Shown here: positions 1-31,261 of the stretch, piece by piece | How positions within the stretch are numbered: position 1 is the stretch's first letter | Layout: each line of letters starts with the position of its first letter | DNA from: an uncultured Acidimicrobiia bacterium | GTDB lineage: Bacteria; Pseudomonadota; Gammaproteobacteria; GCA-001735895 | Length of the DNA: 64,000 nucleotides | Assembly: GCA_964195315.1 (NCBI GenBank) | Contig: CAXMOZ010000089.1 | Location: 17,086 to 81,085 of the forward strand | Reading direction: 5' to 3' | The notes under the pieces: model-generated | Database searches by the model: none | Told to the model about the DNA's origin: nothing | Seen by the model: only the letters and a program-made list of their open reading frames with translations | Program-made: the position numbers and the translations under genes

Positions 1-582
1 ACTAATATAGGGTCATCCTGGCACACAGACCATAGTTATGATCAGATTCCAGCGATGGGTTCTATTTTGTATGCTCGTACTGTGCCTAAGCTAGGAGGCG
101 ATACTTTGTTTGCGAGCATGTATGCAGCTTATGACCATTTATCGGAGGGTATGAAAAACACCCTTCTCGGTATGCGAGCTGAGCACTCCAGTCGGCATGT
201 ATTTGGCGAGGCAGCTTATGCCTATACGGACCAGGAAGACATCAATGACAGGTTAGGGAATAAAGCGAAAGCCACTCAGGATGCAACACACCCAGTTATT
301 ATTAAACATCCTTTGTCGGGTAAACCGGCGTTATATGTTAATGGCGATTTTACGGTTAAATTCGAAGGTTGGAGCCAGTCCGAATCACAACCATTGCTCG
401 ACTATTTATACCAACACGCCAGCCAGAATGAATTCACCTGCCGCTTTCAATGGAGGGGAGGCTCAATAGCAATTTGGGATAACCGAGCGACGCATCATTG
501 TGCGCTGAACGATTATCACGGCGAACGTCGTCTGATGCATCGAATAACAATCGATGGTGAAGCTTTAAATCCAGCGATATAG
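1..582 (+). CDS. TauD/TfdA-family Fe(II)/2-oxoglutarate dioxygenase, 5'-truncated by the window edge
   Basis: Frame is open from base 1 and reads TNIGSSWHTDHSY (HxD iron motif) upstream of the ORF-track start; C-terminal WDNRATHH and RLMHR motifs. Confidence 0.92.
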   Translation, partial: TNIGSSWHTDHSYDQIPAMGSILYARTVPKLGGDTLFASMYAAYDHLSEGMKNTLLGMRAEHSSRHVFGEAAYAYTDQEDINDRLGNKAKATQDATHPVIIKHPLSGKPALYVNGDFTVKFEGWSQSESQPLLDYLYQHASQNEFTCRFQWRGGSIAIWDNRATHHCALNDYHGERRLMHRITIDGEALNPAI

Positions 583-1870: not shown

Positions 1871-1879
1871 GTTTGAACT

Positions 1880-3595: not shown

Positions 3596-3731
3596 TTTTG
3601 TTGTTCCTTTAAATAGCGGGGACTAGTGACTTGTTATTTGTAAAGGTCTGTCCTTAGGTTTTCTAACCCCTCGATCTTGTCTCGGCGAGAGATTAGCAAT
3701 GAGGGAATCGTTGTGCATCACTGTGATTAAA

Positions 3732-4319
3732 TCAGGGCGTTTTTTTACCCGTAATACCTGCGGTTAATACAAATCGCATTGCTTCATTCATACTCATTTT
3801 ACAGGGGCTAATCCTGTCGAGCGGTACTAGTAATGTAAAGCCACCAACCATGTAACTCATCGGTATATAGACCAACGCAGTTTCTGGTTTTTGGAAAGCA
3901 TCTGGTAACCGATTAATATCTTCCTGAGTGATAAAACCGATCACTTCCAAACCATCAATGTTGACGATTACAACCTGACCAAAGCCCTTTTTCTTTGGTG
4001 AAAAGAAGTCAGACAGATCATGCATGATACGATAAATGGTATTCACTAATGGTAGTTTGTAGAGAATTCGCTCACCAAATGCAAAAACCTGTCGCACAAA
4101 AATAGCTCTCATCATTAGACCAACCAGAAATATGATAGCCAGTCCCACAATGGTGCCCAGACCTGGAAAATAAATCGCCCAGGGGAACGCCCATTGTAAA
4201 GCGCCACCCATGATTTTCTCTGCTGAAACGGCTAACCAATACAGTAGGTATACCGTCAAAACCACGGGTAATAAAGTGATTAATCCTGTGAGTAGGGTTG
4301 CACTAATAGATTTGAACAT
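3732..4319 (-). CDS. DUF502 domain membrane protein
   Basis: GLITLLPVVLT N-terminal TM, KLPLVNTIY, VYIPMSYMVGGF, MNEAMRFVLTAG. Confidence 0.85.
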   Translation of the reverse strand: MFKSISATLLTGLITLLPVVLTVYLLYWLAVSAEKIMGGALQWAFPWAIYFPGLGTIVGLAIIFLVGLMMRAIFVRQVFAFGERILYKLPLVNTIYRIMHDLSDFFSPKKKGFGQVVIVNIDGLEVIGFITQEDINRLPDAFQKPETALVYIPMSYMVGGFTLLVPLDRISPCKMSMNEAMRFVLTAGITGKKTP

Positions 4320-4477
4320 TGCCAGAAAACCTTTAACTAAACACGATCAGTATTCACACTTATATCGTCTCTGACCAGAGGTATTTTAAAACTTATAGGT
4401 CTTTCTAATAACGATTCATTTTTGTATTTCACAATAGATGAAAAGCAGGTCATCCTTCAAACTTATCGATCAGTTAT

Positions 4478-4623
4478 GTAGGCCGGAAAAGCGAAGCGCC
4501 TTCCGACAGGCGCTCATCAACGTTGTATGCAATCGACTATTACGAGTATTGTCCTATAGTTTAACTAGGTGGGTGTTGGCAAGTTGGTAACGCCTGATGG
4601 CGCCTATGGCTTATCAGACCTGC
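4478..4623. repeat. REP-doublet (REPIN/BIME-like) element, copy 1
   Basis: GTAG-footed hairpin GTAGGCCGGAAAAGCGAAGCGCCTTCCGAC facing an inverted GCAGGTCTGATAAGCCATAGGCGCCATCAGGC; related copy at 31370-31502. Confidence 0.7.
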
Positions 4624-4717
4624 ATTGATACATCGCTATCAAGGCTGAATAGCTAAGCGGGTAAACCTTTGTAAGAGATCGGTGAACACCACACGAGAAT
4701 CGGCAGTTGCCTAAAGC

Positions 4718-5641
4718 TCAATAGCCAATCAGGCCATTAATATGAGCTGCAACACTGCGTCCGAGTGAGCTTAAATCGTAGCCACCTTCGAGCACAGATA
4801 CGATGCGGCCCTTACTATGTTGTTTTGCGACTGCGCGCAGTTGTTCACTTACCCATCGATAGTCATTATCGTAAAGGCGGACTTGTGACATATCATCTTC
4901 GGCGTGTGCATCAAAGCCAGCGGATATGAAAATCATTTCAGGTTTAAACGCATTGAGTGCTGGCAGCCATCGGTCGGTTATTACTTGACGAAACTCATTG
5001 CTACTGGCGCTAGCATCAAGCGGTGTATTAATAATATTAGCTGATGTTGGTTCTGTGCCGGAGAAGGGATAAAACGGGTGTTGAAAACTTGAGCAAAATA
5101 AAACATTCGGCTCATCGGTAAATATATCTTCGGTGCCATTGCCGTGGTGGACATCAAAATCGACAATCGCAACCCGAGACAATTGATAATGTTGACGTGC
5201 ATAGGCAGCTGCGATAGCAATATTATTAAAAAAACAAAAGCCCATCGCGCTTTTTCTTTCAGCGTGATGTCCGGGTGGACGAGTGGCACAAAATGCGACT
5301 TTTAGTTCCTCTTTCATTACCAGGTCAACGGCCTGCACGGCAGCCCCGGCTGCGTGCAGTGCAGCCGATAAAGTATGGGGATTCATAACTGCGTCTTCGC
5401 CAATTTGGGCATAGCCTTCGCTGGGGGCATTGTCAAAAATATATGCGATATAGGCAGGGTCATGCACTAAACCTAGCAACTTTCGGTCAATCGGAATGGC
5501 GTCGTATTGTCGGGTCACAAAATCAAGCCCAGAGCTAATTAATTGATTTTGAATCGCAGGCAAACGATCAGGTGATTCGGGGTGGTGCTCTCCCATGTCA
5601 TGGGCCTGACACGCAAAATGGCTAATAATTCCAACTGACAT
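4718..5641 (-). CDS. Histone-deacetylase-family (AcuC/HDAH-like) Zn-dependent deacetylase
   Basis: RPPGHH, GFCFFNN, DFDVHHGNGT, SAGFDAH, LEGGY motifs. Confidence 0.95.
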   Translation of the reverse strand: MSVGIISHFACQAHDMGEHHPESPDRLPAIQNQLISSGLDFVTRQYDAIPIDRKLLGLVHDPAYIAYIFDNAPSEGYAQIGEDAVMNPHTLSAALHAAGAAVQAVDLVMKEELKVAFCATRPPGHHAERKSAMGFCFFNNIAIAAAYARQHYQLSRVAIVDFDVHHGNGTEDIFTDEPNVLFCSSFQHPFYPFSGTEPTSANIINTPLDASASSNEFRQVITDRWLPALNAFKPEMIFISAGFDAHAEDDMSQVRLYDNDYRWVSEQLRAVAKQHSKGRIVSVLEGGYDLSSLGRSVAAHINGLIGY

Positions 5642-5659
5642 AGTGTTTGCTCGGTTATC

Positions 5660-7507
5660 TCAAATGCTTTCTGATAGCAAAAGTTCGAGATTCACTTCCT
5701 GAAAGTCGTCACTCGGTATACGTTCGAATCCGTTATGTTTAAATACAGCAATCATGGGTAGATTATCACTGCGGACAAAGGCCAATACTTTATCAAGCTT
5801 GCGGATCCGAGCGATTCGAATCATTTCCGATAACAACGTTTTTGCCATCCCCATCCCGCGTTTGCTTTCTTTGATTACAAAGGCAACTTCGCAGCAATTG
5901 TCGGCAGGGATGAAGTAGTAGCGCCCGACGGCCTGGATGGTTTCTTCATCATAGTCTTGATCGGTAAAACAAAGTGCAAGGTCTTTATGTTGATCGACAC
6001 TGACCAGGCTGCATGACTTCTCTCGACTCATTTGGGTGATGTTATAATTGTAACGCAGCAGTAAGGTTTCCTTGCTATGTGAATAGAAAAACTCCTGTAG
6101 CTTGCGTTCATCAGCGGGGTGTAATGGTCTGAGTGTATATTCGACATCTCCGAAGGTATATTTTTTGAATTCAACTGCACCCAGTTCGGGTACTGATGTT
6201 GGTGAGTCTTCCTGGTATTCGGGTACCCAGTAGTGTTTTCTAACATCGTTCAATAGCTGTGACCTGAACTTTGGGTGCGCGACTCGAATGAGCTCGAGTG
6301 CTCGTTCACGGATAGACTTACCCCGCAGGTTGGCAATGCCGTATTCGGTGACAACGTAGTGGACGTGTCCTCTTGATGTGACAACACCCGCACCTTCGGT
6401 TAAGTGCGTAACAATCTTTGAAATGCTGCCATTGTGAGTGGTCGATTGCAACGCGATAATAGGTTTGCCACCACGACTTAATGAGGCGCCTCGAATAAAG
6501 TCAACCTGACCGCCAATACCACTAAAAAATTGATAGCCTATAGAATCTGCCACCACCTGGCCCGACAGGTCAATTTCAATTGCGCTGTTAATTGAAACCA
6601 TGTTGTCATTACGGGCGATATTGACAGGGGAGTTAACCACTTGTGAAGGATGGAATTCAATGTGAGGGTTGCCATCAACAAAGTCATACAATTGTTTTGA
6701 TCCCATGCAAAACGTGGTAACTGTTTTACCGGGATTATAGGTTTTACGGCGATTATTAATCACACCCTTTTTCATCAAATCGATAATGCCATCAGATATC
6801 ATTTCGCTGTGAATACCTAAATCTTTATGGTTACAAAGATAACGCAAAGCAGCGTCAGGAATTTTGCCAATACCCAACTGTAAGGTGGAGCCATTATCGA
6901 CTAGCATTGAAACATACTGTCCGATTTGCTCAGTAACCTTGTCGTATTGTGCTGGTGGTAACTCAGGTAAAACTTGCTCCTGTTGTATCCAGGCAGTAAT
7001 TTGATTGACGTGAATAAACGATTGACCATTAGTCCGCGGCATTTTCGTGTTGACCTGTGCCACAACATATTTAGCATGTTTCACCGCCGCCGACACGATA
7101 TCGACACTAACGCCGAGCGAACAGTAGCCATATTCATCTGCCGGGCTCACCATTACCAAAGCCACATCGAGCGGTAAAACATTATCCTCGAATAAGCTGG
7201 AAATTTCAGACAGGAAGCAGGGGGTGTAATCGGCACGTCCCTCCGCAATGGCTTCGCGCACATTTTTTCCGCCAATGAAGAGGGTATTCACCTTGAACAG
7301 CTCTTGATGTTCTGGCTTAGCCCAAATATTGTCTGATAGCGTTAAAATATGGACGACTTCAATATCGCGCAGGTTTTGATGGTTATCAATTAGGTCTTCG
7401 ATGAGTGCATTTGGAACGGCGGCATTTGAACCAATGAAGATTCGATTACCGGATTTTAGTAATGATTGCCAATCGATCAGCGAATCATCACCTGGCTTTG
7501 ATAACAC
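5660..7507 (-). CDS. Acetyl-CoA hydrolase/CoA-transferase fused to a C-terminal GNAT acetyltransferase
   Basis: LQLGIGKIP, GIHSEM (catalytic Glu), SGIGGQVDF, VVTEYGIANLRG; C-terminal EVAFVIKESKRGMGMAK acetyl-CoA-binding motif. Confidence 0.9.
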   Translation of the reverse strand: MLSKPGDDSLIDWQSLLKSGNRIFIGSNAAVPNALIEDLIDNHQNLRDIEVVHILTLSDNIWAKPEHQELFKVNTLFIGGKNVREAIAEGRADYTPCFLSEISSLFEDNVLPLDVALVMVSPADEYGYCSLGVSVDIVSAAVKHAKYVVAQVNTKMPRTNGQSFIHVNQITAWIQQEQVLPELPPAQYDKVTEQIGQYVSMLVDNGSTLQLGIGKIPDAALRYLCNHKDLGIHSEMISDGIIDLMKKGVINNRRKTYNPGKTVTTFCMGSKQLYDFVDGNPHIEFHPSQVVNSPVNIARNDNMVSINSAIEIDLSGQVVADSIGYQFFSGIGGQVDFIRGASLSRGGKPIIALQSTTHNGSISKIVTHLTEGAGVVTSRGHVHYVVTEYGIANLRGKSIRERALELIRVAHPKFRSQLLNDVRKHYWVPEYQEDSPTSVPELGAVEFKKYTFGDVEYTLRPLHPADERKLQEFFYSHSKETLLLRYNYNITQMSREKSCSLVSVDQHKDLALCFTDQDYDEETIQAVGRYYFIPADNCCEVAFVIKESKRGMGMAKTLLSEMIRIARIRKLDKVLAFVRSDNLPMIAVFKHNGFERIPSDDFQEVNLELLLSESI

Positions 7508-7562
7508 GAGGCGCTTCCTTTTGATGGCTTATAGGTAGTTGTTAAACGTTTTAGTTTAAACA

Positions 7563-7611
7563 TTAACTGATAATAACAAAGATCTAGCAGCCAAGTGTTG
7601 ATAAAAATCAA
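7563..7611 (-). promoter_or_regulatory. FNR/ANR-type class II promoter for the CoA-transferase-GNAT/deacetylase genes
   Basis: Perfect TTGAT-AAAA-ATCAA at 7598-7611; minus-strand extended -10 TG-T-TATTAT at 7578-7570; the box is centred at -41.5 if +1 is 7563. Confidence 0.75.
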
Positions 7612-7726
7612 CTGAGTATCATAAATAGTACTGCTTTTTTAGCTGGCTTTAGCTCAGGACCATCTCTTCAAACTTGGTGATTTTTGTTTTGTCGGTTTAG
7701 TGAATATTAGTACCGCATCGACAAAC

Positions 7727-8143
7727 TTATACCGACGTCGGCTCATTCAATTCAATCACATAACCATTTGGATCTTTAAAAAAAGCAATTACCCTTGTCC
7801 CCGCATTCATAGGGCCGGGCTCTCTGATACATTCAACGCCTTCCGATTTAAGATACTCAGCTGTTGCGTAAACATCGGATACCTTCAGCGCGAAATGCCC
7901 CCATGCGTTACCCATATCATAAGGTTCTGTCTGATCCCAATTGTAGGTCATTTCTATCGATGTGCCCTCATCTTCTCCTTGATAACCTACAAAGGTATTC
8001 GTGAATTGGCCATCAGGATATTCGTTTTGGCGCAGGATTTTCATACCGAGAACCCGAGTATAAAAGTCCATGGTCTTATCCTGGTCAAACACGCGGATCA
8101 TTGTATGGTCGAGACGAAAGTCTGGTTTTGTAATTGGATTCAT
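7727..8143 (-). CDS. gloA: Lactoylglutathione lyase (glyoxalase I)
   Basis: DHTMIRV, FYTRVLGM, IEMTYNWD, YDMGNAWGHFA, FFKDPNGYVIEL. Confidence 0.9.
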   Translation of the reverse strand: MNPITKPDFRLDHTMIRVFDQDKTMDFYTRVLGMKILRQNEYPDGQFTNTFVGYQGEDEGTSIEMTYNWDQTEPYDMGNAWGHFALKVSDVYATAEYLKSEGVECIREPGPMNAGTRVIAFFKDPNGYVIELNEPTSV

Positions 8144-8178
8144 TTTGCTCTCTTTAATATAATTGGAGGGTTATTTTG

Positions 8179-9300
8179 TCAGGTCAGGCCAGGGCGGATT
8201 GCATTCGCTACCAGTTCCTGAAATTTCCTGACACTGATTTCCCAGTAGGGAGATAATACGCCACCTGATGCTGCCAAATGTGAGTGACGCCCTATTTGTA
8301 AGCGCTCACCCATCTCGTGATCTTCGAGGTGCACACTATGCCATAATTTTTTAAGCCCCTGAATTTGGTCGTCACTATATTGGGAATCTTTGTGGACATA
8401 GATCACCCGATATTGAACAGTAGTGCCAGCATTAATCGGAACATTTAAATGGATACCAAGTTGATCAGGCTGATAGGTGCCCATCACAAAGTTTGGGAAG
8501 AGTGACAGGTATCTCGATGTGACGCCCAGAGTGCCTTGCCCGGCTCTGGCCACTTGTTCATCAGATAAGTCGACTGCGCTGCCAAGGCAATTACCTTCAA
8601 CAATCGCATAATGATTTTTGAGCGGCTGACTTGTCGTGGCTTTATGGACGAACTGCACATGGTATGGCTCTATGAAGTTTTCCATTAACAACTTCCAGTT
8701 ACAGGCAACTTCACCAAATTCAACCATGGCGACTGGTCTGTATTGAGTAACATCGTTATCACCAAGTATTTTTTTGAGCGGTTTCACAAAGTCGTCAAAT
8801 GGCTCTGCATTTGAGTCAAGGTTGATGAAAACCCAGTCGTGCCAAACCTCGCAATCAATTGTTGCTAAACCATTGTCTTTTAGATCAAACCCTTCGCAGG
8901 GTTGCGTAGCTTCGCCACCAAAGAAAGGGGCGTTTTTAAGATTACCAGCGAGATCGTAACTCCAGCTATGGTAAGGACAGCGAATCATGCGACCGCAGTT
9001 TGAGGCTTCAGACACTAATTGCAGGTTTCGATGCCGACACACATTGTGAAAGGCTTTGATCTCATGGTTTTCATTGCGAATTAAAAAGATGGGCTGCCCC
9101 GCAATTGTTAGCGGTTGAATATCACCTGGCTTGGGAAGTTGATGGGCGAACCCGCTAAAGGTCCATGATTTGGCAAACAGGTATTCGTCTTCTAACTGTT
9201 TAAATGCGTCGCTGATATAGGCTGCGCTGGGCAGCCCGTGCTTGGGTGCGCTATCGCTATCAAACTCGTCCAGTAGGTCCGTACTCAAAACTTGGTTCAT
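8179..9300 (-). CDS. Rieske non-heme iron oxygenase alpha subunit (choline-monooxygenase-like group)
   Basis: CRH...CPYH Rieske ligands; NWKLLMENFIEPYH..FVH and LED mononuclear iron ligands. Confidence 0.92.
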   Translation of the reverse strand: MNQVLSTDLLDEFDSDSAPKHGLPSAAYISDAFKQLEDEYLFAKSWTFSGFAHQLPKPGDIQPLTIAGQPIFLIRNENHEIKAFHNVCRHRNLQLVSEASNCGRMIRCPYHSWSYDLAGNLKNAPFFGGEATQPCEGFDLKDNGLATIDCEVWHDWVFINLDSNAEPFDDFVKPLKKILGDNDVTQYRPVAMVEFGEVACNWKLLMENFIEPYHVQFVHKATTSQPLKNHYAIVEGNCLGSAVDLSDEQVARAGQGTLGVTSRYLSLFPNFVMGTYQPDQLGIHLNVPINAGTTVQYRVIYVHKDSQYSDDQIQGLKKLWHSVHLEDHEMGERLQIGRHSHLAASGGVLSPYWEISVRKFQELVANAIRPGLT

Positions 9301-9302
9301 GG

Positions 9303-9420
9303 CGTAATAGTCCCGCTGAATTGCCTTAACATTAATATCTACGTAATTTATTCCTTAATTCGTAATAAATCCATACTATTGTTACGGTATAAGTAAATAA
9401 ATTCTTGATTAATGCGTAAT
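9303..9420. promoter_or_regulatory. Divergent control region with repeated CGTAAT motif (candidate Lrp/AsnC operator array)
   Basis: CGTAAT at 9303, 9342, 9361, 9415 and inverted CGTAAC (gttacg) at 9381 in an AT-rich spacer. Confidence 0.45.
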
Positions 9421-9476
9421 GCATATTTATGATTGCTAGGACTTTAGATGAATTGATGGCAGGATTGAGGAATTAT

Positions 9477-10016
9477 ATGGCTCGGGGTATCAGGGTAGTT
9501 GGACCGTTAGATGAATCAGAGTTGGCGTCAGCCGGCTCCGGAGTGGATGGTAAATTTTTTAGCGAAGACAAGTTAAATCGAGAAATAGTTAGCATGCTGC
9601 AAAGTGATGGGCGTATGGCTTTTTCAGAGATTGCGAAAAGCCTGTCAGTCTCTGAAGGCACGATTCGTAACCGTGTGAATAGTATGAAACAGGCCGGCAT
9701 GTTACGCATTGTCGCAATTGCTGACCCAGTCGCCGCTGAATACAAAAGCGATGCGATGCTTGGGATTAAGGTAGCCGCTGGACATACCGTCCAAGCCCTA
9801 TCAGAGAGGCTCGCTGCTTCTGCTGATGTGGTTTACATACTTTGGGTGAGCGGGCGTTATGACTTATTAGTTGAAGTGGTGAGCAATGATCGTGATGGAT
9901 TTCTCACCTTTCTCGATGAAGAAATTCATCAGCAGTTAGATATTGTATCCAGCGAAACCATGTCTGGACTTAAAAATTTCAAAAATCAGTTTCTGCTAAA
10001 ACAAAATTGGAGCTGA
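9477..10016 (+). CDS. Lrp/AsnC family transcriptional regulator
   Basis: LQSDGRMAFSEIAKSLSVSEGTIRNRV HTH, SGRYDLLVEV RAM domain; start moved to ATG 9477 after GAGGA RBS. Confidence 0.92.
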   Translation: MARGIRVVGPLDESELASAGSGVDGKFFSEDKLNREIVSMLQSDGRMAFSEIAKSLSVSEGTIRNRVNSMKQAGMLRIVAIADPVAAEYKSDAMLGIKVAAGHTVQALSERLAASADVVYILWVSGRYDLLVEVVSNDRDGFLTFLDEEIHQQLDIVSSETMSGLKNFKNQFLLKQNWS

Positions 10017-10084
10017 AAATTGCACTGTTAGTAGCGATCAAAAGTTAGTTTTTACCTTATAGAATCAAGATCTAGGAGAATGAT

Positions 10085-11500
10085 ATGACCGTTTATGTCG
10101 AAACCTTTGCCGAAGCCATACCCTCGAAAGAGCGTATTGCCGAAGTTCGAAAGGAGCTAGAAGATGCGGGTGTTGAATATGTACTTTCGAGCTGGATAGA
10201 TTTATTTGGTATCCCAAAAACTAAGCCAGTACCGATGAGTGATTTCGAGCAATTGTGTCTGGGAAAAGGGCCTCAATTTGCAGTTCACTCTATTTCATTT
10301 GTGCCTGAGTTATCGCCTGCCGATTCAGATCAGGTGATGGTGCCTGATTTAGATGCGGTTTATATCTGTCCCTGGGACAAATCAATGGCGATTATTTTCG
10401 CGGACTTGTTCTGGGAAGACAAACCCTACAATGTTTGTCCGCGCCAGTCACTAAAGCGTCAAATTCGCGATGCTAAAGACGCTGGTTATGTCGGTTATGC
10501 CGGGATCGAGCCAGAATTCATTGCGATGCGTTTTAACGATGAAGGGCAGCCAGTCAAAGCCTTCGATAGTGACCCTGAAAAAGGCTTACGCTCACGCCGA
10601 CAGGCCTTTGGTTACGATGTCGAGCAATCTATCGACTCGATGCCCTTCCTCAAGGACCTGATTGATATTCTAGAAGATATGGGTTGGAACATGCATGACG
10701 TAGTCGCCGAAGGCGCCTACTCACAGTTTGAACTAGATTTTCACTATACCGATTTATTAGAAATGGCCGATCGATATACCTTCCTGCGTATCCTATTAAA
10801 GGAAGTTGCCAAGGAACACGGCATGTTTATTACTTTTATGCCTAAGCCAACCAGTGGTGATTGGCGTTCAGGCGCTCATATCAACTTGTCTTTACAAAAG
10901 GCTGATGCGCCTGGCGTAAATATATTTGGCAATGATGAAGATGGTTGGAGTGACGAGTCTCTTTGGGCCGTTGGTGGTTTAATTAAACACTCAGAAGCCA
11001 TTACAGCTATTGCCTGCCCAATTGTTAACTCTTACAACGGGCTTGTACCGCGAGTGGGTGGTTTCGAAGGTGGTACGGTTACCTGGGCCCCGACTAACAT
11101 TACCTATGGCTACAACAATCGTGCAGCACAGTTCCGTTTGCCACAAAGCCGTTACTGTATTGAAAACCGCGCTGCTGATATGTGCATGAATATCTATCTA
11201 GGACTTGGCATGTCAATTGGTGGTGCTGTTAAAGGTATCCAGAACAAGATGGAACCAGGCGAGCCTTGTAATCTTAATCTTTATGAGATGACGGATGAAC
11301 AGTTCGAAGCAGCCGGAATTCGCAGGTTGCCACGTAATTTGATGATTGCACTGGAAGCATTGCGTAACGATGAATTGGCTGTTCAAGTGATGGGGCCAGT
11401 GATGCTTAAGTCATACTTGGCTTACAAGGATGACGAGTGGGAGCGCTACCACCAAACAGTGACCGACTGGGAAGTAGAAGAATACCTACGACTCTTCTAA
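10085..11500 (+). CDS. Glutamine-synthetase-fold amide ligase (GlnT/gamma-glutamylamide synthetase-like), divergent active site
   Basis: GIEPEF, EGAYSQFE, FMPKP, TWAP, NNR..FRLP, CIENR metal/ATP motifs retained; substrate-binding motifs altered. Confidence 0.88.
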   Translation: MTVYVETFAEAIPSKERIAEVRKELEDAGVEYVLSSWIDLFGIPKTKPVPMSDFEQLCLGKGPQFAVHSISFVPELSPADSDQVMVPDLDAVYICPWDKSMAIIFADLFWEDKPYNVCPRQSLKRQIRDAKDAGYVGYAGIEPEFIAMRFNDEGQPVKAFDSDPEKGLRSRRQAFGYDVEQSIDSMPFLKDLIDILEDMGWNMHDVVAEGAYSQFELDFHYTDLLEMADRYTFLRILLKEVAKEHGMFITFMPKPTSGDWRSGAHINLSLQKADAPGVNIFGNDEDGWSDESLWAVGGLIKHSEAITAIACPIVNSYNGLVPRVGGFEGGTVTWAPTNITYGYNNRAAQFRLPQSRYCIENRAADMCMNIYLGLGMSIGGAVKGIQNKMEPGEPCNLNLYEMTDEQFEAAGIRRLPRNLMIALEALRNDELAVQVMGPVMLKSYLAYKDDEWERYHQTVTDWEVEEYLRLF

Positions 11501-11555
11501 TCTGTAGAGGGTGAAAGTTTTGATCTCACCCTCGCTCAAACCAGTTTAAAGCCAA

Positions 11556-12587
11556 ATGACAAGTGCTCCAAAAAATGCACAGAAATGTGCCCAAACATAT
11601 GAAATACCCGATTTCGAACTTCAGTCGGGTGTTGTGTTGCCATGTGCCTGTCTGGTTTATAAAACCTATGGCGAGCTGAATGCAGCGAAAGATAATGTTG
11701 TGGTATTGCCCACTTTTTATACGGGCAGTCACCAACGCAACGAAGGGTTTTTTGGTGCAAAGCGCGCTATAAATACAGCTTTGCATTTTATTATTTCAGT
11801 GAACTTGTTTGGTAACGGAATTTCTTCGTCACCGAGCAATACTCCACCACCCTTTAATGCAGGTAACTTTCCAGCGATTACTTTGTTCGACAATGTCCGA
11901 GCGCAGCACAAACTACTCACCGAGGTGCTTGGTGTGACTGAAATTGCGTTGGTAACAGGCTGGTCGATGGCCGGTTGCCAGGCTTTTCAATGGGCTGCTC
12001 AATACCCCAATATGGTAAGAGCTATCCTACCTTTTTGCGCTTCGTCGAAGACATCTGAACATAACATTGTCTTCCTTGAAGGCATCAAATCGGCACTTCA
12101 GGCAGATGCAGTTTATGACGAAGGCAATTATCAGACACCACCCGTTAGAGGGTTAAAAGCGTTTGGCAGAAATTATGCTGGCTGGGCATTTTCGCAGACT
12201 TATTATCGTAAGAAAATGTACCGGTTGCAAGGTTTTGACAGCTTTGAAGCCTTATTGCAAGACTGGGAACAAGATCATCTTGATTGGGATGCAAATGACT
12301 TATTGTGCAAATTAAAGACCTGGCAGCAAGCTGATATAAGTCAGCAACCTGCCTACGATGGTGACTTTGTGAAAGCGTTAAATGCCATTAAAGCGAAAAC
12401 GATCATTATCGGCTGTGATGATGATATGTACTTTCGAGTTGAAGATAATCAAATTGAGGCGGCACAAATTAACAATGCTGAACTTCGTGTCTATTCATCA
12501 CCCTGGGGGCATTGTGTTGCATCACCTGGCAATGACCCTAAATTTGAAAAATTTCTGGATCAATCCATTTCAGAATTATTACCTTGA
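11556..12587 (+). CDS. MetX (homoserine acetyltransferase)-fold alpha/beta hydrolase or acyltransferase
   Basis: LVYKTYGELN, nucleophile GWSMAG, Asp in DDMYF, His in WGH; lacks the MetX HALTG-type motif. Confidence 0.85.
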   Translation: MTSAPKNAQKCAQTYEIPDFELQSGVVLPCACLVYKTYGELNAAKDNVVVLPTFYTGSHQRNEGFFGAKRAINTALHFIISVNLFGNGISSSPSNTPPPFNAGNFPAITLFDNVRAQHKLLTEVLGVTEIALVTGWSMAGCQAFQWAAQYPNMVRAILPFCASSKTSEHNIVFLEGIKSALQADAVYDEGNYQTPPVRGLKAFGRNYAGWAFSQTYYRKKMYRLQGFDSFEALLQDWEQDHLDWDANDLLCKLKTWQQADISQQPAYDGDFVKALNAIKAKTIIIGCDDDMYFRVEDNQIEAAQINNAELRVYSSPWGHCVASPGNDPKFEKFLDQSISELLP

Positions 12588-12621
12588 ATATTAATTCAGT
12601 GAACTTTAACCGGAGAAGAAA

Positions 12622-13026
12622 ATGACAGCACCAAGCGTATATAGAATCGCCGATATTCAGGATCGTATCGATAATCTGCCTGAGAATGGTACTTTCATTA
12701 AGCCATTCGTTACTATTGAAACCAGTACTAGCATGTGCGGTGGTATCAACGCACTGAATAAAATTTCAGTGCCATGGGACTTAACCTGTGATGAGTTAAT
12801 TTATTGCCTTGAGGGTACATTCCGTTTGGTTGTTGAGGACATTGGTTATGAGCTAAACCCAGGTGATATGATGTTTGTACCTAAGGATAATCATGTTGTT
12901 TATGAATGCGATGATAAGTGCGTTATTTTTTATTCGGCTTATCCTGTTGATTGGAAACAGCGTGCCGGTATTACCCATGTGCCTGGCATCGATTCAGATG
13001 AAATGCCTACACCATACAAGGACTAA
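12622..13026 (+). CDS. EutQ-like cupin
   Basis: WDLTCDELIYCLEG, LNPGDMMFVPK, YPVDW. Confidence 0.8.
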   Translation: MTAPSVYRIADIQDRIDNLPENGTFIKPFVTIETSTSMCGGINALNKISVPWDLTCDELIYCLEGTFRLVVEDIGYELNPGDMMFVPKDNHVVYECDDKCVIFYSAYPVDWKQRAGITHVPGIDSDEMPTPYKD

Positions 13027-13079
13027 CCCAGTGCCAGTCCTCTTCGTTTTGGAGAGGGCAATTTAACAGGTTTTTTACC

Positions 13080-13445
13080 ATGTCCATCCCCAAGATAATA
13101 GAAACCTATCTTAAAGGCTGGCAGCTAGGTGATGGAGCATTGAGCCTTACCGCCACTGCTGACAGTTTCTACTATGACGATCCTAATACGGGTAGAATTC
13201 AACGGCATGAGTTGGTTCAATTTGTAAATGATTTTAAAAGCGCTGCGGTAGACATGGGGGCGGAAGAGAATGCCAATCCGTTTTTAATTTATAGTGATGT
13301 TGTGATTGACTATAATATTAGCCCAGTAACTGTTTGGTGTTGGTGGCAGGCCAATGGTACTGATCTGCAAGGGTGCGCCTTAGTTAAAGTTGGAGAAGAG
13401 GGGGTCTTGAACGAGAAGATAGCTTACTTCTCTCAATTATCCTAA
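13080..13445 (+). CDS. SnoaL/NTF2-like protein
   Basis: 121 aa, YLKGWQLGD, FYYDDPNTG and beta-rich C-terminus typical of the NTF2 fold. Confidence 0.6.
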   Translation: MSIPKIIETYLKGWQLGDGALSLTATADSFYYDDPNTGRIQRHELVQFVNDFKSAAVDMGAEENANPFLIYSDVVIDYNISPVTVWCWWQANGTDLQGCALVKVGEEGVLNEKIAYFSQLS

Positions 13446-13510
13446 CTGACCGAGGACAGTAGACTGAAAAGCAGAAGCACGACATCTCTGCCGTGATTCT
13501 GTTTCGTTAT

Positions 13511-14338
13511 TTATGCTGCTTTAACTTCGTGCATGTGAACATCTTGCTGTGGGTACGGAATGCTAATACCTGCTTCATCTAGCTTAACCTTAATGCCCTC
13601 GAGCAACTCAGCACGAACGCCCCAGTAATCAGCTGAATTCACCCAGGGGCGAACATTCAAATTAACACTGCTGTCACCTAATTCTGCAACGGCAACACCC
13701 GGTGCAGGGTCTTTTAAAATAAGCTCGTTCGATTCTATAATCCTCATAATAATGTCTCGAGCTTGACCAATGTTGTCGTCATAGCCGATGCCAATGACAA
13801 GGTCGATACGGCGCGTTGGTAAAGCACTGGTATTAATAATATTGCCCCCCAAAATGGCCGAGTTAGGAATAATGATACGTTGGTTGTCAGCGGTATGCAT
13901 CAGAGTTGCGAACAAACCAATTTCATCAATCACACCTGCCGCGCCGCCAGCGGTAACAAAGTCACCAATTTTGAATGGGCGAAAAATGATGATCATAACG
14001 CCAGACGCAAAGTTAGATAGCGAGTCCTTCAGCGCTAAGCCAACAGCAAGACCGGCGGCAGCTACAATTGCCATCAGTGAGGTAACGTTTACACCGAGAG
14101 AGTCTACGGCGGCAAGTACAACGGCGACTATCAATACACCGTATGAAATGCTACCCATAAAATCCACTAGCATCGAATCGATGCCAGATTTTTGCAGAGC
14201 TTTTTTTAGAAGATTACTAACGATTCTGGCAACTATTTTACCGATAATAAATATCGCAATCGCAATGACGATCTTAATGCCCCAGTCAACCCCGTTATTG
14301 GCGATCCAATTTGTTACGTTGTCCATTTTTAGTTCCAT
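13511..14338 (-). CDS. mscS: Small-conductance mechanosensitive channel
   Basis: AAGLAVGLALKDSLSNFASG, RPFKIGD, IIPNS, PYPQQDVH. Confidence 0.93.
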   Translation of the reverse strand: MELKMDNVTNWIANNGVDWGIKIVIAIAIFIIGKIVARIVSNLLKKALQKSGIDSMLVDFMGSISYGVLIVAVVLAAVDSLGVNVTSLMAIVAAAGLAVGLALKDSLSNFASGVMIIIFRPFKIGDFVTAGGAAGVIDEIGLFATLMHTADNQRIIIPNSAILGGNIINTSALPTRRIDLVIGIGYDDNIGQARDIIMRIIESNELILKDPAPGVAVAELGDSSVNLNVRPWVNSADYWGVRAELLEGIKVKLDEAGISIPYPQQDVHMHEVKAA

Positions 14339-14667
14339 TGTTTATCTGTTTTTAGAATAATAAAGTAACGGGTCATACTTTTTCTAATCAAACTGAGTTT
14401 ATCGATAAAGAATCCCCGCGAGCCCTTGTCCACATCTATTATAGCGAATGCTTAGACCGATGGTAAACATGAAAGTTATACCGATCTTAATCTACCTGAA
14501 TGCGATTATCACGAGTACTATAAATGAAACCTGTTGTGTTACTCAATCAGGTTAATAGCGCTTAGACAATAAGATTTTGGATAAAAGTAAACTTTTAACC
14601 TATTCTGTACGCTTGGTATAAAGTTATATTATTGGTTAACAACAAATTAAAATAATGAGGAAGGGGT

Positions 14668-16209
14668 ATGGATTTACCATTCGTGGGCGACGGTGTTGAT
14701 AAATTTGTTGCTGGATTTGTATCAGTCACAACAACGCTTATTGTGTTATCGATCTGTTTTGGGGCTGTTGCGGTAGTTGTCATTTACATCATTGATATAA
14801 CTCAAACTAAGCAGGCGATCCGGCGTAACTATCCGGTTGTTGGACGATTTCGATACTTTTTTGAACATCTGGGTGAGTTTTTTCGGCAGTATTTCTTTTC
14901 GATGGATAGAGAGGAACTACCGTTTAATCGAGCCCAGCGATCATGGGTGTATCGAGCAGCCAAACAGGTGGACACCACGGTAGCATTTGGATCGACTAAA
15001 GACTTAAGGCCCGCAGGGACAAACATATTTCTGAATTGCCCATTTCCGACGCTGGGTACGGATGGGGTTGATCCAGGTGAGATAGTGATAGGGCCACAGG
15101 CAAGAAAGCCCTACGCCACACGCTCGTTGTACAATATATCGGGTATGAGTTTTGGAGCGCTTTCGGCCCCCGCTGTAACGGCACTGGCACGCGGTGCCAA
15201 GGAAACCAAGTGTTGGATGAATACAGGCGAAGGGGGCGTCTCTCCCTATCACCTCGCTCCAGGTTGCGATCTGATCGTGCAAATTGGCACCGCCAAATAT
15301 GGTGTGCGTGACCTTGAAGGTAATCTGAGTGATGATAAGCTGAAAGCGCTGGCTGAATACGAACAGATTAAAATGTTTGAGATTAAATTGAGTCAAGGTG
15401 CAAAGCCCGGTAAAGGTGGCATTCTGCCTGGCGAAAAAGTATCTGCTGAAATCGCTGAAATCCGAGGCATTGAAATTGGTACCAGCTCTATCAGTCCTAA
15501 TCGTCACCCCGATATTAATTCAGTTGATGACCTTACTGATATGATCAACCATATTCGTGAGGTGACTGGTCGTCCTGTTGGAGTTAAATGTGTTGTAGGT
15601 GCTAGTGGGTGGCTAGATGATTGGTTTGATAGCATCAATAAACGGGGTAAAGAATGCGCGCCTGATTTTATTACGGTCGACGGTGCGGAAGGGGGGACAG
15701 GTGCAGCACCTATGGCATTGATCGACGAAGTCGGGCTTCCGCTGCGCGAGAGCTTGCCACTAGTGGTAGATAAATTGGATATTCATGGTCTGCGTGATCG
15801 GGTCAAAGTGATCGCTTCTGGAAAATTAATCAATCCGTCAAATGTTGCCTGGGCTTTATGCATGGGTGCTGACTTTTGTACTTCAGCTCGAGGCTTTATG
15901 TTTTCACTTGGATGTATACAAGCCTTGCAGTGCAATAAAAATACTTGCCCAACTGGAATAACAACCCACGACATTAAATTGCAGCGTGGCCTTGACCCTA
16001 CCAATAAAGCAGTCCGAGTAGCCAAGTTTCAAGATCAAATTGAATACGAAGTTGGTCTTATCGCGCATGCTTGTGGTGTGACAGAGCCACGCCAATTACG
16101 TCGATTTCATTGCAGAGTGGTACAAGAGAATGGCATTTCGATACCCTTAAATGATATATATCCTGATAGGTCAACTGTCGGTTATTTGAGCCGGCGCGGA
16201 AACGGCTAG
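14668..16209 (+). CDS. FMN-binding glutamate synthase family protein (stand-alone, N-terminal TM)
   Basis: MSFGALS, NTGEGG, EIKLSQGAKPGKGG, DGAEGGTGAAP, GCIQALQCNKNTCPTG (3Fe-4S Cys motif). Confidence 0.92.
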   Translation: MDLPFVGDGVDKFVAGFVSVTTTLIVLSICFGAVAVVVIYIIDITQTKQAIRRNYPVVGRFRYFFEHLGEFFRQYFFSMDREELPFNRAQRSWVYRAAKQVDTTVAFGSTKDLRPAGTNIFLNCPFPTLGTDGVDPGEIVIGPQARKPYATRSLYNISGMSFGALSAPAVTALARGAKETKCWMNTGEGGVSPYHLAPGCDLIVQIGTAKYGVRDLEGNLSDDKLKALAEYEQIKMFEIKLSQGAKPGKGGILPGEKVSAEIAEIRGIEIGTSSISPNRHPDINSVDDLTDMINHIREVTGRPVGVKCVVGASGWLDDWFDSINKRGKECAPDFITVDGAEGGTGAAPMALIDEVGLPLRESLPLVVDKLDIHGLRDRVKVIASGKLINPSNVAWALCMGADFCTSARGFMFSLGCIQALQCNKNTCPTGITTHDIKLQRGLDPTNKAVRVAKFQDQIEYEVGLIAHACGVTEPRQLRRFHCRVVQENGISIPLNDIYPDRSTVGYLSRRGNG

Positions 16210-16296
16210 ATGTTGAGGTTGTCTGAAAACATTAATTAAAAAAAGGTCTGAAAAAACCAACTCAATAAGCGAAAGCTCTAACCCCAAGGAATCCCA

Positions 16297-17931
16297 ATGA
16301 AAGCGAGTGATCTGTTTGTACGTTGTCTAGAAAATGAAGGCGTTGAATATATTTTTGGCATCCCTGGAGAAGAGAATCTCGATGTCATGGATTCGATGAT
16401 TGGTAGCGATATTAAGTTTATAACCACTCGGCATGAACAGGGGGCCGCGTTTATGGCTGATGTTTATGGACGTTTAACCGGCAGAGCGGGTGTATGTCTA
16501 GCAACGCTCGGCCCTGGTGCTACCAATCTGGTCACTGGGTTTGCCGATGCCAATATGGATAGAGCGCCCATTGTTGGAATAGCCGGGCAGGGTGCGACCA
16601 CAAGAATGCATAAAGAAAGTCACCAGGTACTTGATTTGGTGAGTTTGTTTGCACCGATATCTAAATATAGCGTTGAGATTCGGGAACCTGAAATTGTTGG
16701 CGAAATTGTACGTAAAGCGTTTAAAGCCGCAGAAGCCGAAAAACCAGGCGGCAGCTTCATTTCATTTCCTGAAAATGTAGCGGAGATGACAGTCGAAGGT
16801 AAAGAGCCACTCAAGGTACAAAGTGCTAAGCCACCCGTACCACCGCAGGATAAAATTTTACAGGCAGCGGAGTTGATTTCGAATGCCAAATATCCTCTGG
16901 TGATGGCTGGCAACGGTGTCGTAAGAGCGAAAGCCGATTATGCATTAGTCGCCTTTGCCGAAAAACTCAATATACCGGTAGCCACTACCTTTATGGCCAA
17001 GGGCAGTATTCCATTTTCTCACGACCTGTCGCTTGGCACGGTTGGTTTACAGGCACATGATTATGTTGCCTGTGGTTTTGATCGAGCCGACGTCGTGATT
17101 TGTATCGGCTACGATATGATCGAATATCATCCTCATCTTTGGAATCAGGAAAAGAACAACAAGATTATTCACATTGATTTGAATCCGGCCGAAGTGGATG
17201 AACACTATATACTTGAATGTGGTGTTATCGGTGATATCACCGCTGCATTAGAAGGCATTGCAGCATTGGCAACCCCGAAGACAGGTTCACAGGCGCAAAA
17301 CTTACGCGAAACCATTGTCGAAGAACTGAATACCCACGAAGACGACAGCTCATTCCCATTAGTGCCTCAACGCATTGTGCTCGATATCCGAAAAGCCTTA
17401 GCACATGACGATATCGTGGTATCCGATGTGGGTGCTCATAAGATGTGGATGGCGCGTATGTATCAGGCTGAGCGTCCGAATACTTGTATTATCTCAAATG
17501 GTTTTGCATCGATGGGCATCGGTGTGCCAGGTGCGATAGCGGCCAAATTGGTTTATCCAGATAGAACCGCATTAACAGTAACAGGTGATGCCGGATTTCT
17601 AATGAATTCACAAGAGATCGAAACTGCCATGAGAATTGGCACCGCAATTATTATATTGATCTGGAACGATAGCAAATATGGTTTGATAAAATGGCATCAG
17701 GACCGTCGCTTTGGCCGTGACACTCAAATTCAATTTAATAACCCTGACTTTGTGATGTATGCCGAGAGTTTTGGCGCAAAAGGATATCGTGTTGAATCTG
17801 CTGATGACTTATTACCGACCATTAAAAAGGCCATTGCCGACGATACGGTGGTAATCATCGATTGTCCCGTGGATTACTCAGAGAACATGAAACTCACCGA
17901 GAAACTTGGAAATCTAGTTTGCCCTATTTAA
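16297..17931 (+). CDS. ThDP-dependent acetolactate-synthase-like enzyme; candidate 2-oxoglutarate decarboxylase (OgdA-like)
   Basis: FGIPGEEN, RHEQGAAFMAD, DVGAHKMW, SNGFASMG, GDAG..N ThDP motif; resembles, from memory, cyanobacterial OgdA. Confidence 0.85.
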   Translation: MKASDLFVRCLENEGVEYIFGIPGEENLDVMDSMIGSDIKFITTRHEQGAAFMADVYGRLTGRAGVCLATLGPGATNLVTGFADANMDRAPIVGIAGQGATTRMHKESHQVLDLVSLFAPISKYSVEIREPEIVGEIVRKAFKAAEAEKPGGSFISFPENVAEMTVEGKEPLKVQSAKPPVPPQDKILQAAELISNAKYPLVMAGNGVVRAKADYALVAFAEKLNIPVATTFMAKGSIPFSHDLSLGTVGLQAHDYVACGFDRADVVICIGYDMIEYHPHLWNQEKNNKIIHIDLNPAEVDEHYILECGVIGDITAALEGIAALATPKTGSQAQNLRETIVEELNTHEDDSSFPLVPQRIVLDIRKALAHDDIVVSDVGAHKMWMARMYQAERPNTCIISNGFASMGIGVPGAIAAKLVYPDRTALTVTGDAGFLMNSQEIETAMRIGTAIIILIWNDSKYGLIKWHQDRRFGRDTQIQFNNPDFVMYAESFGAKGYRVESADDLLPTIKKAIADDTVVIIDCPVDYSENMKLTEKLGNLVCPI

Positions 17932-30639: not shown

Positions 30640-30655
30640 AAATTCAAGCGTCCTG

Positions 30656-31255: not shown

Positions 31256-31261
31256 AAACGG

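Follow-up and report, generated by a model that had tools for sequence, protein, structure and literature searches.

A modular AsnC-linked gene cluster built on a distinct glutamine synthetase-fold ligase, with a tentative role in the catabolism of a small cationic nitrogen compound

The DNA analysed here is a stretch of 64,000 nucleotides (nt) from contig CAXMOZ010000089.1, in the following termed the window. It is chromosomal, as it also carries rpoBC, tuf/fusA, tRNA and ribosomal-protein genes, and its closest relatives are marine gammaproteobacterial metagenome-assembled genomes (MAGs), some of which are labelled Candidatus Azotimanducaceae. Positions 7727-13445 hold a cluster of seven open reading frames (ORFs), in which the gene for an Lrp/AsnC-family regulator lies between a divergent Rieske oxygenase-glyoxalase I gene pair and genes for an ATP-dependent ligase of the glutamine synthetase (GS) fold, a MetX-fold hydrolase and two small proteins. 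A first-pass annotation had read this cluster as a complete protect-oxidise-deprotect module for a small amine. Its seven-gene layout agrees with the ORF list of the window, in which the following features are found:

7727-8143, minus strand: GloI, Ni/Co-type glyoxalase I (lactoylglutathione lyase), second gene of the divergent operon; PF00903 and TIGR00068
8179-9300, minus strand: alpha subunit of a Rieske non-haem-iron oxygenase, group Va-like (relatives of CntA and choline monooxygenase); Pfam Rieske and Ring_hydroxyl_A
9301-9428: divergent promoter/operator region of 128 nt with four copies of CGTAAT, a candidate AsnC operator
9429-10016, plus strand: Lrp/AsnC-family transcription regulator; HTH_AsnC-type and AsnC_trans_reg domains
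10085-11500, plus strand: predicted GS-fold ATP-dependent carboxylate-amine ligase of a distinct clade, sister to GmaS; Gln-synt_C, 285 bits
11556-12587, plus strand: MetX-fold serine hydrolase of the MekB/Hle esterase subfamily; PRK07581
12622-13026, plus strand: EutQ-like cupin, cupin domain only, accessory gene; PF06249, 54 bits
13080-13445, plus strand: conserved protein of 121 amino acids (aa), possibly NTF2/SnoaL-like, accessory gene; weak SnoaL_2 match in 2 of 10 homologues

The plus-strand genes are separated by gaps of 68, 55, 34 and 53 nt, and 35 nt lie between the genes for the Rieske protein and GloI. The family calls were upheld by the curated models of Pfam and NCBIfam (June 2026), whose cut-offs were compared with the scores, for all genes except that for the 121-aa protein. 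The latter had been called a SnoaL protein. This assignment stands on weak ground, as the window protein itself matches neither Pfam nor NCBIfam and the best of the two homologue matches has an E-value of 0.0035. A single-sequence AF2 model of the protein (pLDDT 50.8, low confidence) exhibits an alpha+beta pattern, and the family has 38 invariant columns over 10 homologues.

Compared with the closest relative (locus L001), positions 7734-14394 form a single collinear block that is 82% identical, and both flanks differ. The block also takes in a downstream MscS gene (13511-14338), and the window has insertions relative to L001 at 1855-7733 and 14395-17826. As the block is kept while its flanks vary, the unit is real and the boundaries drawn by the first-pass annotation are right. 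Contig L001 (JBLHID010000060.1) is titled as a Polaribacter (Bacteroidota) MAG and is nevertheless 82% DNA-identical to the gammaproteobacterial window across the whole cluster, which suggests contamination during binning. A partial copy within the 90% cluster of the ligase is likewise labelled Rubritalea.

A scan with one genome per species yielded 202 loci with a close relative of the ligase. Conservation figures given here stem from the best 80 of these, and neighbour counts from 36 species-level loci with flanks of 8 kb or more to either side of the ligase gene. Across the 80 loci ligase identity is 72-98%. Carriers among the Gammaproteobacteria are Arenicellales, Granulosicoccaceae and Cocleimonas, those among the Alphaproteobacteria are Ruegeria, SAR11 single-cell genomes, Mesorhizobium, Hoeflea and Rhodospirillales, and one Mycolicibacterium carries the gene outside the Proteobacteria. 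Identities this high over these taxa point at strong constraint and horizontal spread. The ligase is common in marine metagenomes. Culturable carriers include Ruegeria lacuscaerulensis, Ruegeria sp. EL01, Hoeflea sp. TYP-13, Mesorhizobium sp. Root552 and Pelagibius sp. In Mycolicibacterium parafortuitum (L065, 10001-11413), the ligase is 74% identical to the marine gammaproteobacterial one and the hydrolase 58%, which indicates a probable transfer of the pair between phyla.

A search of gene neighbourhoods, put forward by the first-pass annotation as a check on its reading, bears out the co-occurrence of the families. The hydrolase gene adjoins that of the ligase in 32 of the 36 loci and the AsnC gene is found directly upstream of the ligase gene in 30; GloI is encoded nearby in 23 and the Rieske protein in 22, with the genes for these two adjoining each other in 22-23. 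Gene order differs by class, the Rieske-GloI operon being divergent in Gammaproteobacteria and the order being collinear in SAR11 (Rieske > GloI > cupin > ligase > hydrolase), and the partnerships are kept in both classes. This grouping is not due to chance. The description as a complete seven-gene module did not survive: the cupin gene is present in 9 and that for the 121-aa protein in 3-5 of the 36 loci, and the full form is a minority of 4. Both accessory genes are missing even in relatives with a ligase that is 92-93% identical, and the cupin gene is absent in L004 and L005. The stable core is AsnC, ligase and hydrolase. Rieske protein and GloI constitute one of at least two alternative oxygenase modules, and the cupin and the 121-aa protein are optional. 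A recurrent ORF of about 181 aa located 3' of the hydrolase gene was considered as a hidden conserved member and rejected because the ORFs are not homologous.

In many genomes, the position of Rieske and GloI is taken by an alternative module consisting of a 454-aa phthalate-family Rieske protein and a D-2-hydroxyacid dehydrogenase, sometimes accompanied by a Rieske ferredoxin. Both modules occur together in the Arenicellales loci L042, L044 and L046, all with long flanks, and in some SAR11 loci; one locus features a third Rieske type. About a quarter of the long-flank loci have neither Rieske type nearby, and a search of the flanks of core-only loci for alternative oxidising enzymes revealed housekeeping genes alone in the loci checked.

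The ligase stays below the cut-offs of the curated models for related enzymes, reaching 350.4 against TIGR03105 (GSIII/GmaS; cut-off 469.6), 284.9 against TIGR00653 (GlnA; cut-off 429.15) and 184 against NF045547 (PuuA; cut-off 650). Its best match in the PDB is a glutamate-methylamine ligase (9qur, 239 bits), and it is 30-31% identical to the true GmaS of the same loci. Individual residues were read from an alignment with family members and these true GmaS proteins and set against the structure paper on RhGmaS (PMC7948447). Residues for metal, ATP and gamma-phosphate are kept, with E142, E144, E209, E216, H265, R346, R351, E360 and R362 being invariant (alignment A1). In GS, Asp50' is the residue that binds and deprotonates ammonium (PMC7948447); at this position FDGSSI is changed to FAVHSI in 72 of 72 family members, giving Ala as in GmaS. 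Arg312, Asp177 and Glu186 are the strictly conserved catalytic residues of RhGmaS (PMC7948447). The Glu and the Arg are kept in the ligase, Asp177, the methylamine-deprotonating base, is replaced by Val, and the positions of Gln175 and Asn188 are both occupied by Asp.

The site for the acid is altered as well. In GS and GmaS, an Arg (Arg321 St/Arg298 Bs/Arg288 RhGmaS) binds glutamate at its alpha-carboxylate; this Arg has become Gly (NSYKR to NSYNGL) and the Asn-Gly that contacts the alpha-amino end of glutamate has become Trp-Arg (GDNGSGMH to GDWRSGAH), each in all 72 members. NSYKR is retained in true GmaS and in a 36% paralogue, and NSY[KR]R in the paralogues with 30-36% identity. In the flap, four additional residues and a GS-like Glu are found. 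Invariant signatures and sub-cut-off scores together speak for a distinct clade of the GS fold. Judged by its sequence, the ligase is neither GS nor GmaS nor PuuA, and these canonical identities were rejected on the basis of curated cut-offs and defining residues. The first-pass view of an Lrp/AsnC-associated unit on a non-canonical GS-fold ligase thus gains from the conservation of the AsnC gene next to it and from its position below every curated cut-off. With the alpha-carboxylate Arg lost, gamma-glutamylation is only a possible reaction of the ligase: its acid substrate may be glutamate, held by a relocated Arg, or a glutamate-like acid without an alpha-carboxylate.

The hydrolase scores 427.1 against PRK07581 (cut-off 332) and falls below the cut-offs of both MetX models (146.5 against TIGR01392, cut-off 500; 134.5 against PRK00175, cut-off 331), for which reason an identity as MetX, homoserine O-acetyltransferase, was rejected. 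Full-length alignments are obtained with CgHle (5d6o, 187.7 bits) and MekB (5e4y, 178.4 bits), both of which are esterases. The Ser-Asp-His triad is kept, and the nucleophile motif GWSMAG is present in 65 of 66 orthologues. Triad and membership in the MekB/Hle subfamily suggest a hydrolase or acyl-transferase for an ester, a thioester or possibly an amide. By its predicted fold family, the protein is not of the class that removes gamma-glutamyl groups in the Puu and Ipu pathways, and the role of an acyl-removing deprotector, for which PuuD/IpuF-type gamma-glutamyl-amide hydrolases would be the precedent, is accordingly not supported as stated for this esterase-type protein. The cupin matches EutQ in the PDB (4axo) with 49.5 bits and NF012001 with 40.7 (cut-off 193). 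A His-rich metal motif was not found in the cupin sequences and no eut genes lie near the cupin gene. An identity as full-length EutQ, the acetate kinase of the eut operon, was rejected since the cupin domain alone matches.

The closest solved relative of the Rieske protein is the carnitine monooxygenase CntA (6y9c, 99 bits). GbcA (NF058607), the best NCBIfam model, is matched by the N-terminal half only, with a score of 142 (cut-off 670). The motif NFIEPYHVQFVH aligns with NYMECYH of CntA such that the pi-cation residue Tyr203 is replaced by Phe while the bridging Glu205 and the iron-binding His208 and His213 are kept. NFIEPYH is present in 42 of 46 orthologues and the Rieske motif CRHR...CPYH in 43 of 46, and E-P-Y-H-x4-H aligns with E205, H208 and H213 of CntA. 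Phe or Tyr at position 203 marks the clade Va oxygenases for quaternary amines (carnitine, choline, benzalkonium), which catalyse C-N cleavage or choline oxidation, and Asn the clade Vb demethylases (PMC7948474). Clade Va enzymes hydroxylate adjacent to, or one carbon away from, the charged nitrogen (PMC7948474). By this residue the Rieske protein falls into group Va, whose members act on quaternary or cationic amines in free and not in N-acylated form. It lacks the Cys pair of some group-V enzymes (Cys206/Cys209). Identities as CntA or GbcA were rejected on account of the cut-off, the contact residues and the lack of an adjacent CntB reductase.

GloI reaches 136.6 against TIGR00068, above the equivalog cut-off of 120, and matches E. 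coli GloA (1f9z, 122.6 bits) and plant GLYI (6bnn, 208 bits) in the PDB. Its His/Glu/His/Glu metal ligands can be read from HTMIRV, IEMTYNW, GHFAL and IELNE, and by score and ligand set it is a true Ni-type glyoxalase I. GloI accompanies the Rieske protein in Gamma- as well as Alphaproteobacteria, as would not be expected for a housekeeping gene, and we infer that the oxygenase step yields a 2-oxoaldehyde. Since the glyoxalase route leads to a D-2-hydroxyacid, the D-2-hydroxyacid dehydrogenase of the alternative module is consistent with the same end-product of the carbon.

In the regulator, both PF13404 (40 bits) and PF01037 (33 bits) exceed their cut-offs, and the score against AsnC (PRK11179, 69 bits) is below the cut-off of this model. 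Its N-terminal 45 aa may be over-called. Heptamers of TAATTCGTAA/TTACGAATTA occur in 16 of 41 orthologous regions upstream of AsnC genes, compared with about one expected from a background that included coding DNA, and the enrichment holds with either oxygenase module upstream. The CGTAAT/TTCGTAA repeats are thus a plausible candidate for the AsnC operator. Searches for riboswitches or other Rfam families in the regions upstream of the operons gave no credible matches, and scans for promoters and terminators returned no more matches than in shuffled sequence.

Several gene arrangements outside the window are informative with respect to the function of the core. The strongest contextual clue is the link to methylamine genes: mgsABC and a bona fide gmaS adjoin the ligase-hydrolase pair in L017, L022, L026, L067, L070 and L076. 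The neighbouring gmaS is genuine, scoring 651.5 against TIGR03105 in L070 (cut-off 469.6). In Arenicellales the genes are arranged on one strand in the order AsnC > ligase > hydrolase > (PuuR-like) > mgsA > mgsB > mgsC > gmaS, and the order in Ruegeria is mgsABC-gmaS-(FMN protein)-Rieske-GloI-cupin-ligase-BCCT-hydrolase. Transporter genes are also embedded in or close to the cluster. A NitT/TauT-type ABC transporter is encoded between ligase and hydrolase in Arenicellales, a BCCT carrier resides at the same place in Ruegeria and adjoins the cluster in Arenicella, an APC-type permease lies beside the core in Hansschlegelia, and a TAXI-TRAP system is encoded near the cluster in SAR11. Arginase-family genes flank the ligase gene in four loci (L008, L010, L027, L048).

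Some of these genomes feature further peculiarities. In L026 (1-17564), mgsABC occurs twice, in separate sets that are each accompanied by a gmaS-like gene. On the Arenicellales chromosome OZ242007.1 the ligase-hydrolase pair is found twice at different sites (L017 and L022), each copy with a different oxygenase module. In the SAR11 loci L072-L079 (for example L072, 745-12615) the cluster resides inside a longer same-strand island, which also encodes a luciferase-like monooxygenase, an Xsc/ALS-like thiamine pyrophosphate (TPP) enzyme, an AA_synth protein (PF06684), a second alpha/beta hydrolase, a BADH-like aldehyde dehydrogenase (ALDH), an EamA exporter and a Leu/Ile/Val-type binding protein; in some of these loci an aminotransferase gene is situated upstream.

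Taken together, we tentatively favour the view that the cluster, under the control of an AsnC/Lrp regulator, serves to catabolise a small cationic nitrogen compound and to salvage its nitrogen. The most likely candidates for this compound are methylated or quaternary amines, or else amino-ketones or amino-alcohols akin to choline or carnitine. From gene identities, conservation, modularity, residue signatures and neighbours, all as observed, we infer the chemical steps as follows. The Rieske protein would hold the charged nitrogen against the Phe at CntA position 203 and hydroxylate the adjacent carbon. The hydroxylated product may then collapse to an amine and a 2-oxoaldehyde of the methylglyoxal/glyoxal type, which GloI could convert with glutathione to S-(D-2-hydroxyacyl)glutathione; elsewhere, the D-2-hydroxyacid dehydrogenase would take the place of GloI. 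At the expense of ATP, the ligase would fix the released or an imported amine as an amide, in gamma-glutamyl-type chemistry with a remodelled pocket, and the hydrolase might cleave an ester, thioester or amide, either of a precursor or of the conjugate. The regulator would derepress both operons when the substrate or an amino compound derived from it is present. In several lineages, the amine handled by the ligase-hydrolase core may feed or parallel the N-methylglutamate pathway.

A number of points weigh against this picture. In the window, the cluster contains no gene for a reductase of the Rieske protein and none for a transporter; an ALDH gene is likewise missing from 7727-13445, the nearest one in the window being located at 17978-19414. 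Transporter, Rieske reductase and any ALDH must hence be encoded outside the block in the genome of the window. Tyr225, Asn270 and Tyr295 of CntA correspond to His, Gly and Arg in the Rieske protein, as mapped by hand in a part of the alignment that is of lower confidence; as the carnitine-contacting residues are not kept, the substrate is probably not carnitine itself. The main weakness is that a tertiary amine such as trimethylamine, released by C-N cleavage of a quaternary compound, cannot be amidated, so that this reading does not account for the passage from the product of the Rieske protein to the substrate of the ligase. The many genomes that possess AsnC, ligase and hydrolase alone, amid housekeeping genes, imply that the core must work without an oxygenase module. 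Finally, the binding protein of the ABC transporter is of the sulfonate/taurine/nitrate type and not of the betaine-binding type.

Among the alternatives, the protect-oxidise-deprotect scheme of the first-pass annotation holds up best and is possible, if doubtful. Here, the substrate of a pathway similar to Puu, Ipu or GlnA4 would be a primary amine, with amino-alcohols such as ethanolamine or 1-amino-2-propanol as the most plausible candidates. The ligase would make the gamma-glutamyl amide, the Rieske protein would oxidise the carbinol carbon of the conjugate, an ALDH encoded elsewhere would complete the oxidation and the hydrolase would free glutamate plus glycine or alanine, while GloI would clear glyoxal or methylglyoxal arising from amino-aldehyde or amino-ketone intermediates. 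The scheme finds partial support, and several details are in accord with it: the ligase lacks Asp50' as do known gamma-glutamyl-amine ligases (PMC7948447), the oxygenase resembles choline monooxygenase, the cupin is EutQ-like, the permease beside the core in Hansschlegelia is of the APC type and the Arenicellales operon includes a PuuR-like regulator. An ALDH gene furthermore follows directly after the block in L001, lies 4.5 kb downstream in the window and is present in BADH-like form in the SAR11 island. However, the pi-cation trait conferred by Phe203 favours a free charged amine (PMC7948474), and the pairing of GloI with the Rieske protein points to a 2-oxoaldehyde that the scheme does not predict. 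The block has no ALDH gene, the hydrolase is a MetX homologue of the esterase subfamily and not a PuuD/IpuF-type amidohydrolase, the Arg for the alpha-carboxylate of glutamate is replaced by Gly, and core-only genomes have no oxidising enzyme nearby.

It is also conceivable, though unlikely, that the ligase activates a "decarboxy-glutamate" acid such as gamma-aminobutyric acid, gamma-butyrobetaine or a carnitine-like betaine as an acyl phosphate and that the cluster serves betaine catabolism. The MetX-fold enzyme would then handle the acyl intermediate and the CntA-like Rieske protein would free trimethylamine for the neighbouring methylamine genes. This would agree with the loss of the Arg in NSYKR (to NSYNG) and the new Trp-Arg pair, both without exception in the 72 members (residue roles according to PMC7948447), with the operon-borne BCCT transporters, the position of CntA as the nearest solved relative of the Rieske protein and the adjacency of gmaS-mgsABC, and with the arginase-family genes beside the ligase gene, as this family includes guanidinobutyrase-like enzymes. 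On the other hand, the Arg may merely have moved (Gly265 to Arg) and still bind glutamate, we know of no GS-fold enzyme with such a substrate, the carnitine-binding residues of CntA are absent, and a betaine acyl phosphate or amide would have no obvious fate.

The chances are small that the cluster serves internal detoxification or salvage of aminoacetone, or a similar alpha-amino-carbonyl compound, from threonine/glycine metabolism. Deamination by the Rieske protein would yield methylglyoxal, from which GloI would form S-D-lactoylglutathione; the hydrolase would act as a thioesterase analogous to glyoxalase II, the D-2-hydroxyacid dehydrogenase of other genomes would oxidise D-lactate, and the ligase would recapture the nitrogen. 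Such a line has the appeal of employing Rieske protein, GloI, hydrolase and 2-hydroxyacid dehydrogenase in one sequence of steps; MetX-fold enzymes naturally act on thioesters, and Lrp/AsnC regulators are typically amino-acid sensors. Yet operon-embedded transporters speak for an external substrate, the ligase lacks the Asp50' required for ammonium, core-only genomes have no GloI in the cluster and no thioesterase activity is known for the MekB/Hle subfamily.

Even less probable is a bypass for dimethylamine, in which the ligase would form gamma-glutamyl-dimethylamide and a Rieske N-demethylase of either module would convert it to gamma-glutamylmethylamide for the MgsABC/Mgd pathway, thereby replacing the DmmDABC enzyme that is missing in SAR11. 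The ligase is sister to GmaS with the methylamine-deprotonating Asp177 changed to Val, its gene and that of the hydrolase are directly followed by mgsABC-gmaS on the same strand in Arenicellales and adjoin these genes in Ruegeria, and RhGmaS accepts dimethylamine to some extent (PMC7948447). SAR11 single-cell genomes carry the cluster, and dmmDABC is absent from all SAR11 (PMC5520151). Nonetheless, the cluster is found in some SAR11 genomes only, Ruegeria pomeroyi possesses Dmm (PMC5520151), which may make a bypass unnecessary for the Ruegeria carriers, an amide nitrogen lacks the positive charge that the Rieske trait would suggest for the substrate, and GloI, hydrolase and BCCT/ABC transporters are left unexplained. 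That the genes are mere neighbours without a shared function is hardly credible: cupin and 121-aa genes vary even among close relatives, but the partnerships of ligase, hydrolase and regulator and of Rieske protein and GloI are kept across Gamma- and Alphaproteobacteria despite different orders, the upstream motif is shared and the block is conserved between variable flanks.

A broader idea, for which we see a slim chance, is that the ligase-hydrolase pair and the interchangeable Rieske modules represent an unrecognised branch of marine methylated- and quaternary-amine nitrogen cycling. In one form, a gamma-glutamyl route would carry dimethylamine or another secondary or odd osmolyte-derived amine into the N-methylglutamate pathway. 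This would fill the DmmDABC gap reported for SAR11 and other abundant marine bacteria, and it would bring to light a GS-fold enzyme with an acid/amine pocket that differs from that of every characterised member.

Several neighbouring genes in the window deserve brief mention. The genes at 14668-16209, glutamate-synthase-like and binding flavin mononucleotide (FMN), and 16297-17931 (acetolactate-synthase-like) were considered as members of the cluster and rejected, as they are part of an insertion relative to L001 that sits between the MscS and ALDH genes. The former encodes a membrane-anchored FMN "glutamate synthase domain" protein that is 30-33% identical to MgsC of the relatives, and the latter a TPP enzyme with 800 bits against PRK08322. 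Within the 1855-7733 insertion, a histone-deacetylase-family protein is encoded at 4718-7507 (minus strand) beside a fusion of acetyl-CoA hydrolase/transferase and GNAT acetyltransferase, possibly an acyl-lysine modification pair. The window starts with the C-terminal part of a TauD/TfdA-family 2-oxoglutarate dioxygenase (55-582, plus strand), cut by the window edge and followed by genes for an MFS transporter (602-1870) and a Mur-ligase-like protein (1880-3595). At 21183-22703 (minus strand), two adjacent same-strand ORFs of 228 and 270 aa, of which the downstream one alone contains the C-terminal part of an amidohydrolase, could represent one gene split by a frameshift or sequencing error. 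An SOS mutagenesis-type cassette (25100-31291, minus strand) comprises a LexA-like repressor (30656-31291; Peptidase_S24 and LexA_DNA_bind), three overlapping ORFs without Pfam match after the LexA-like gene (28519-30729), which are possibly imuA/imuB-like or frameshifted, and as its last gene a homologue of the DnaE2-type alpha subunit of DNA polymerase III (25100-28360).

The first-pass annotation did not recognise the gene combination from any characterised pathway, and this still applies. No curated family model covers the set, and neither NCBIfam (June 2026) nor Pfam holds a pathway-specific name for the cluster genes or their recurrent neighbours. A full-text literature search returned background on CntA, GmaS and Dmm and no paper describing this gene set, though a paper outside the searchable literature is possible. 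Source annotations name the genes generically, the JGI label for Rieske members of the cluster being "choline monooxygenase", and under the labels "choline monooxygenase", "glutamine synthetase" and "homoserine O-acetyltransferase" the cluster escapes notice in current annotation. Amine-catabolic loci centred on a GS-like ligase are a known kind of system, as are group-V Rieske oxygenases; the clade of the ligase, its obligate MekB-type partner and the pairing of Rieske protein and GloI appear to be new. SAR11, the Roseobacter group and sponge-associated Arenicellales, all among the carriers, are dominant groups in turning over dissolved organic nitrogen. A dedicated and regulated pathway that such organisms share by horizontal spread would point at an abundant substrate or route that has escaped recognition. 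Once the substrate is identified, thousands of database annotations could be corrected, marine methylamine/osmolyte cycling would gain a node and a new specificity class of the GS fold would be defined.

Among known systems, GmaS and the N-methylglutamate pathway (gmaS-mgsABC-mgdABCD) come close in several respects. GmaS is the best solved relative of the ligase (9qur, 7cql), both lack Asp50', the ligase gene adjoins real gmaS-mgsABC genes in six relatives and the setting is the same (Roseobacter, SAR11, marine Gammaproteobacteria). In contrast to GmaS, to which it is 30-31% identical and whose TIGR03105 cut-off it does not reach, the ligase has Val for Asp177, Asp for Gln175 and Asn188, and Gly for Arg288, and it is paired with an alpha/beta hydrolase while GmaS is not. 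PuuABCD from E. coli, IpuC-I from Pseudomonas (isopropylamine) and GlnA4 from Streptomyces (ethanolamine) share with the cluster the combination of a GS-like ligase, an oxidising enzyme and a hydrolase in one regulated locus, following the logic that the amine is masked before oxidation. Their oxidising enzyme is a flavin oxidase or P450 instead of a group-V Rieske protein and their hydrolase has a class-I amidotransferase-like instead of a MetX/MekB fold; unlike theirs, the cluster block has no ALDH gene and includes GloI as an obligate partner of the oxygenase.

CntAB and other group-V Rieske systems (choline monooxygenase, GbcA, Stc2, OxyBAC) resemble the cluster oxygenase in consisting of alpha subunits only, in Glu205/His208/His213 and the aromatic residue 203, and in their linkage to BCCT transporters and trimethylamine/methylamine genes. 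The cluster oxygenase differs in lacking Tyr225/Asn270/Tyr295, the Cys206/Cys209 pair and an adjacent CntB/GbcB-type reductase, and to our knowledge a pairing with glyoxalase I occurs in no described group-V Rieske system. The only described systems known to us in which a GS-like ligase and a Rieske enzyme act on the same substrate are the aniline and 1-naphthylamine dioxygenases (AtdA1-A5, TdnQTA1A2B, NpaA1...), where a hydrolase likewise removes the glutamyl group. These act on arylamines and feature two-subunit ring dioxygenases, a glutamine-amidotransferase-like hydrolase and a dedicated reductase, whereas the oxygenase of the cluster belongs to the type for quaternary amines and gives no hint of an aromatic substrate. 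For the hydrolase, MekB from Pseudomonas veronii and CgHle from Corynebacterium glutamicum are the closest counterparts, belonging to the same PRK07581 subfamily with full-length alignment and the triad kept. MekB, however, works after a Baeyer-Villiger monooxygenase on ethyl acetate, whereas the hydrolase described here is partnered by a GS-fold ligase.

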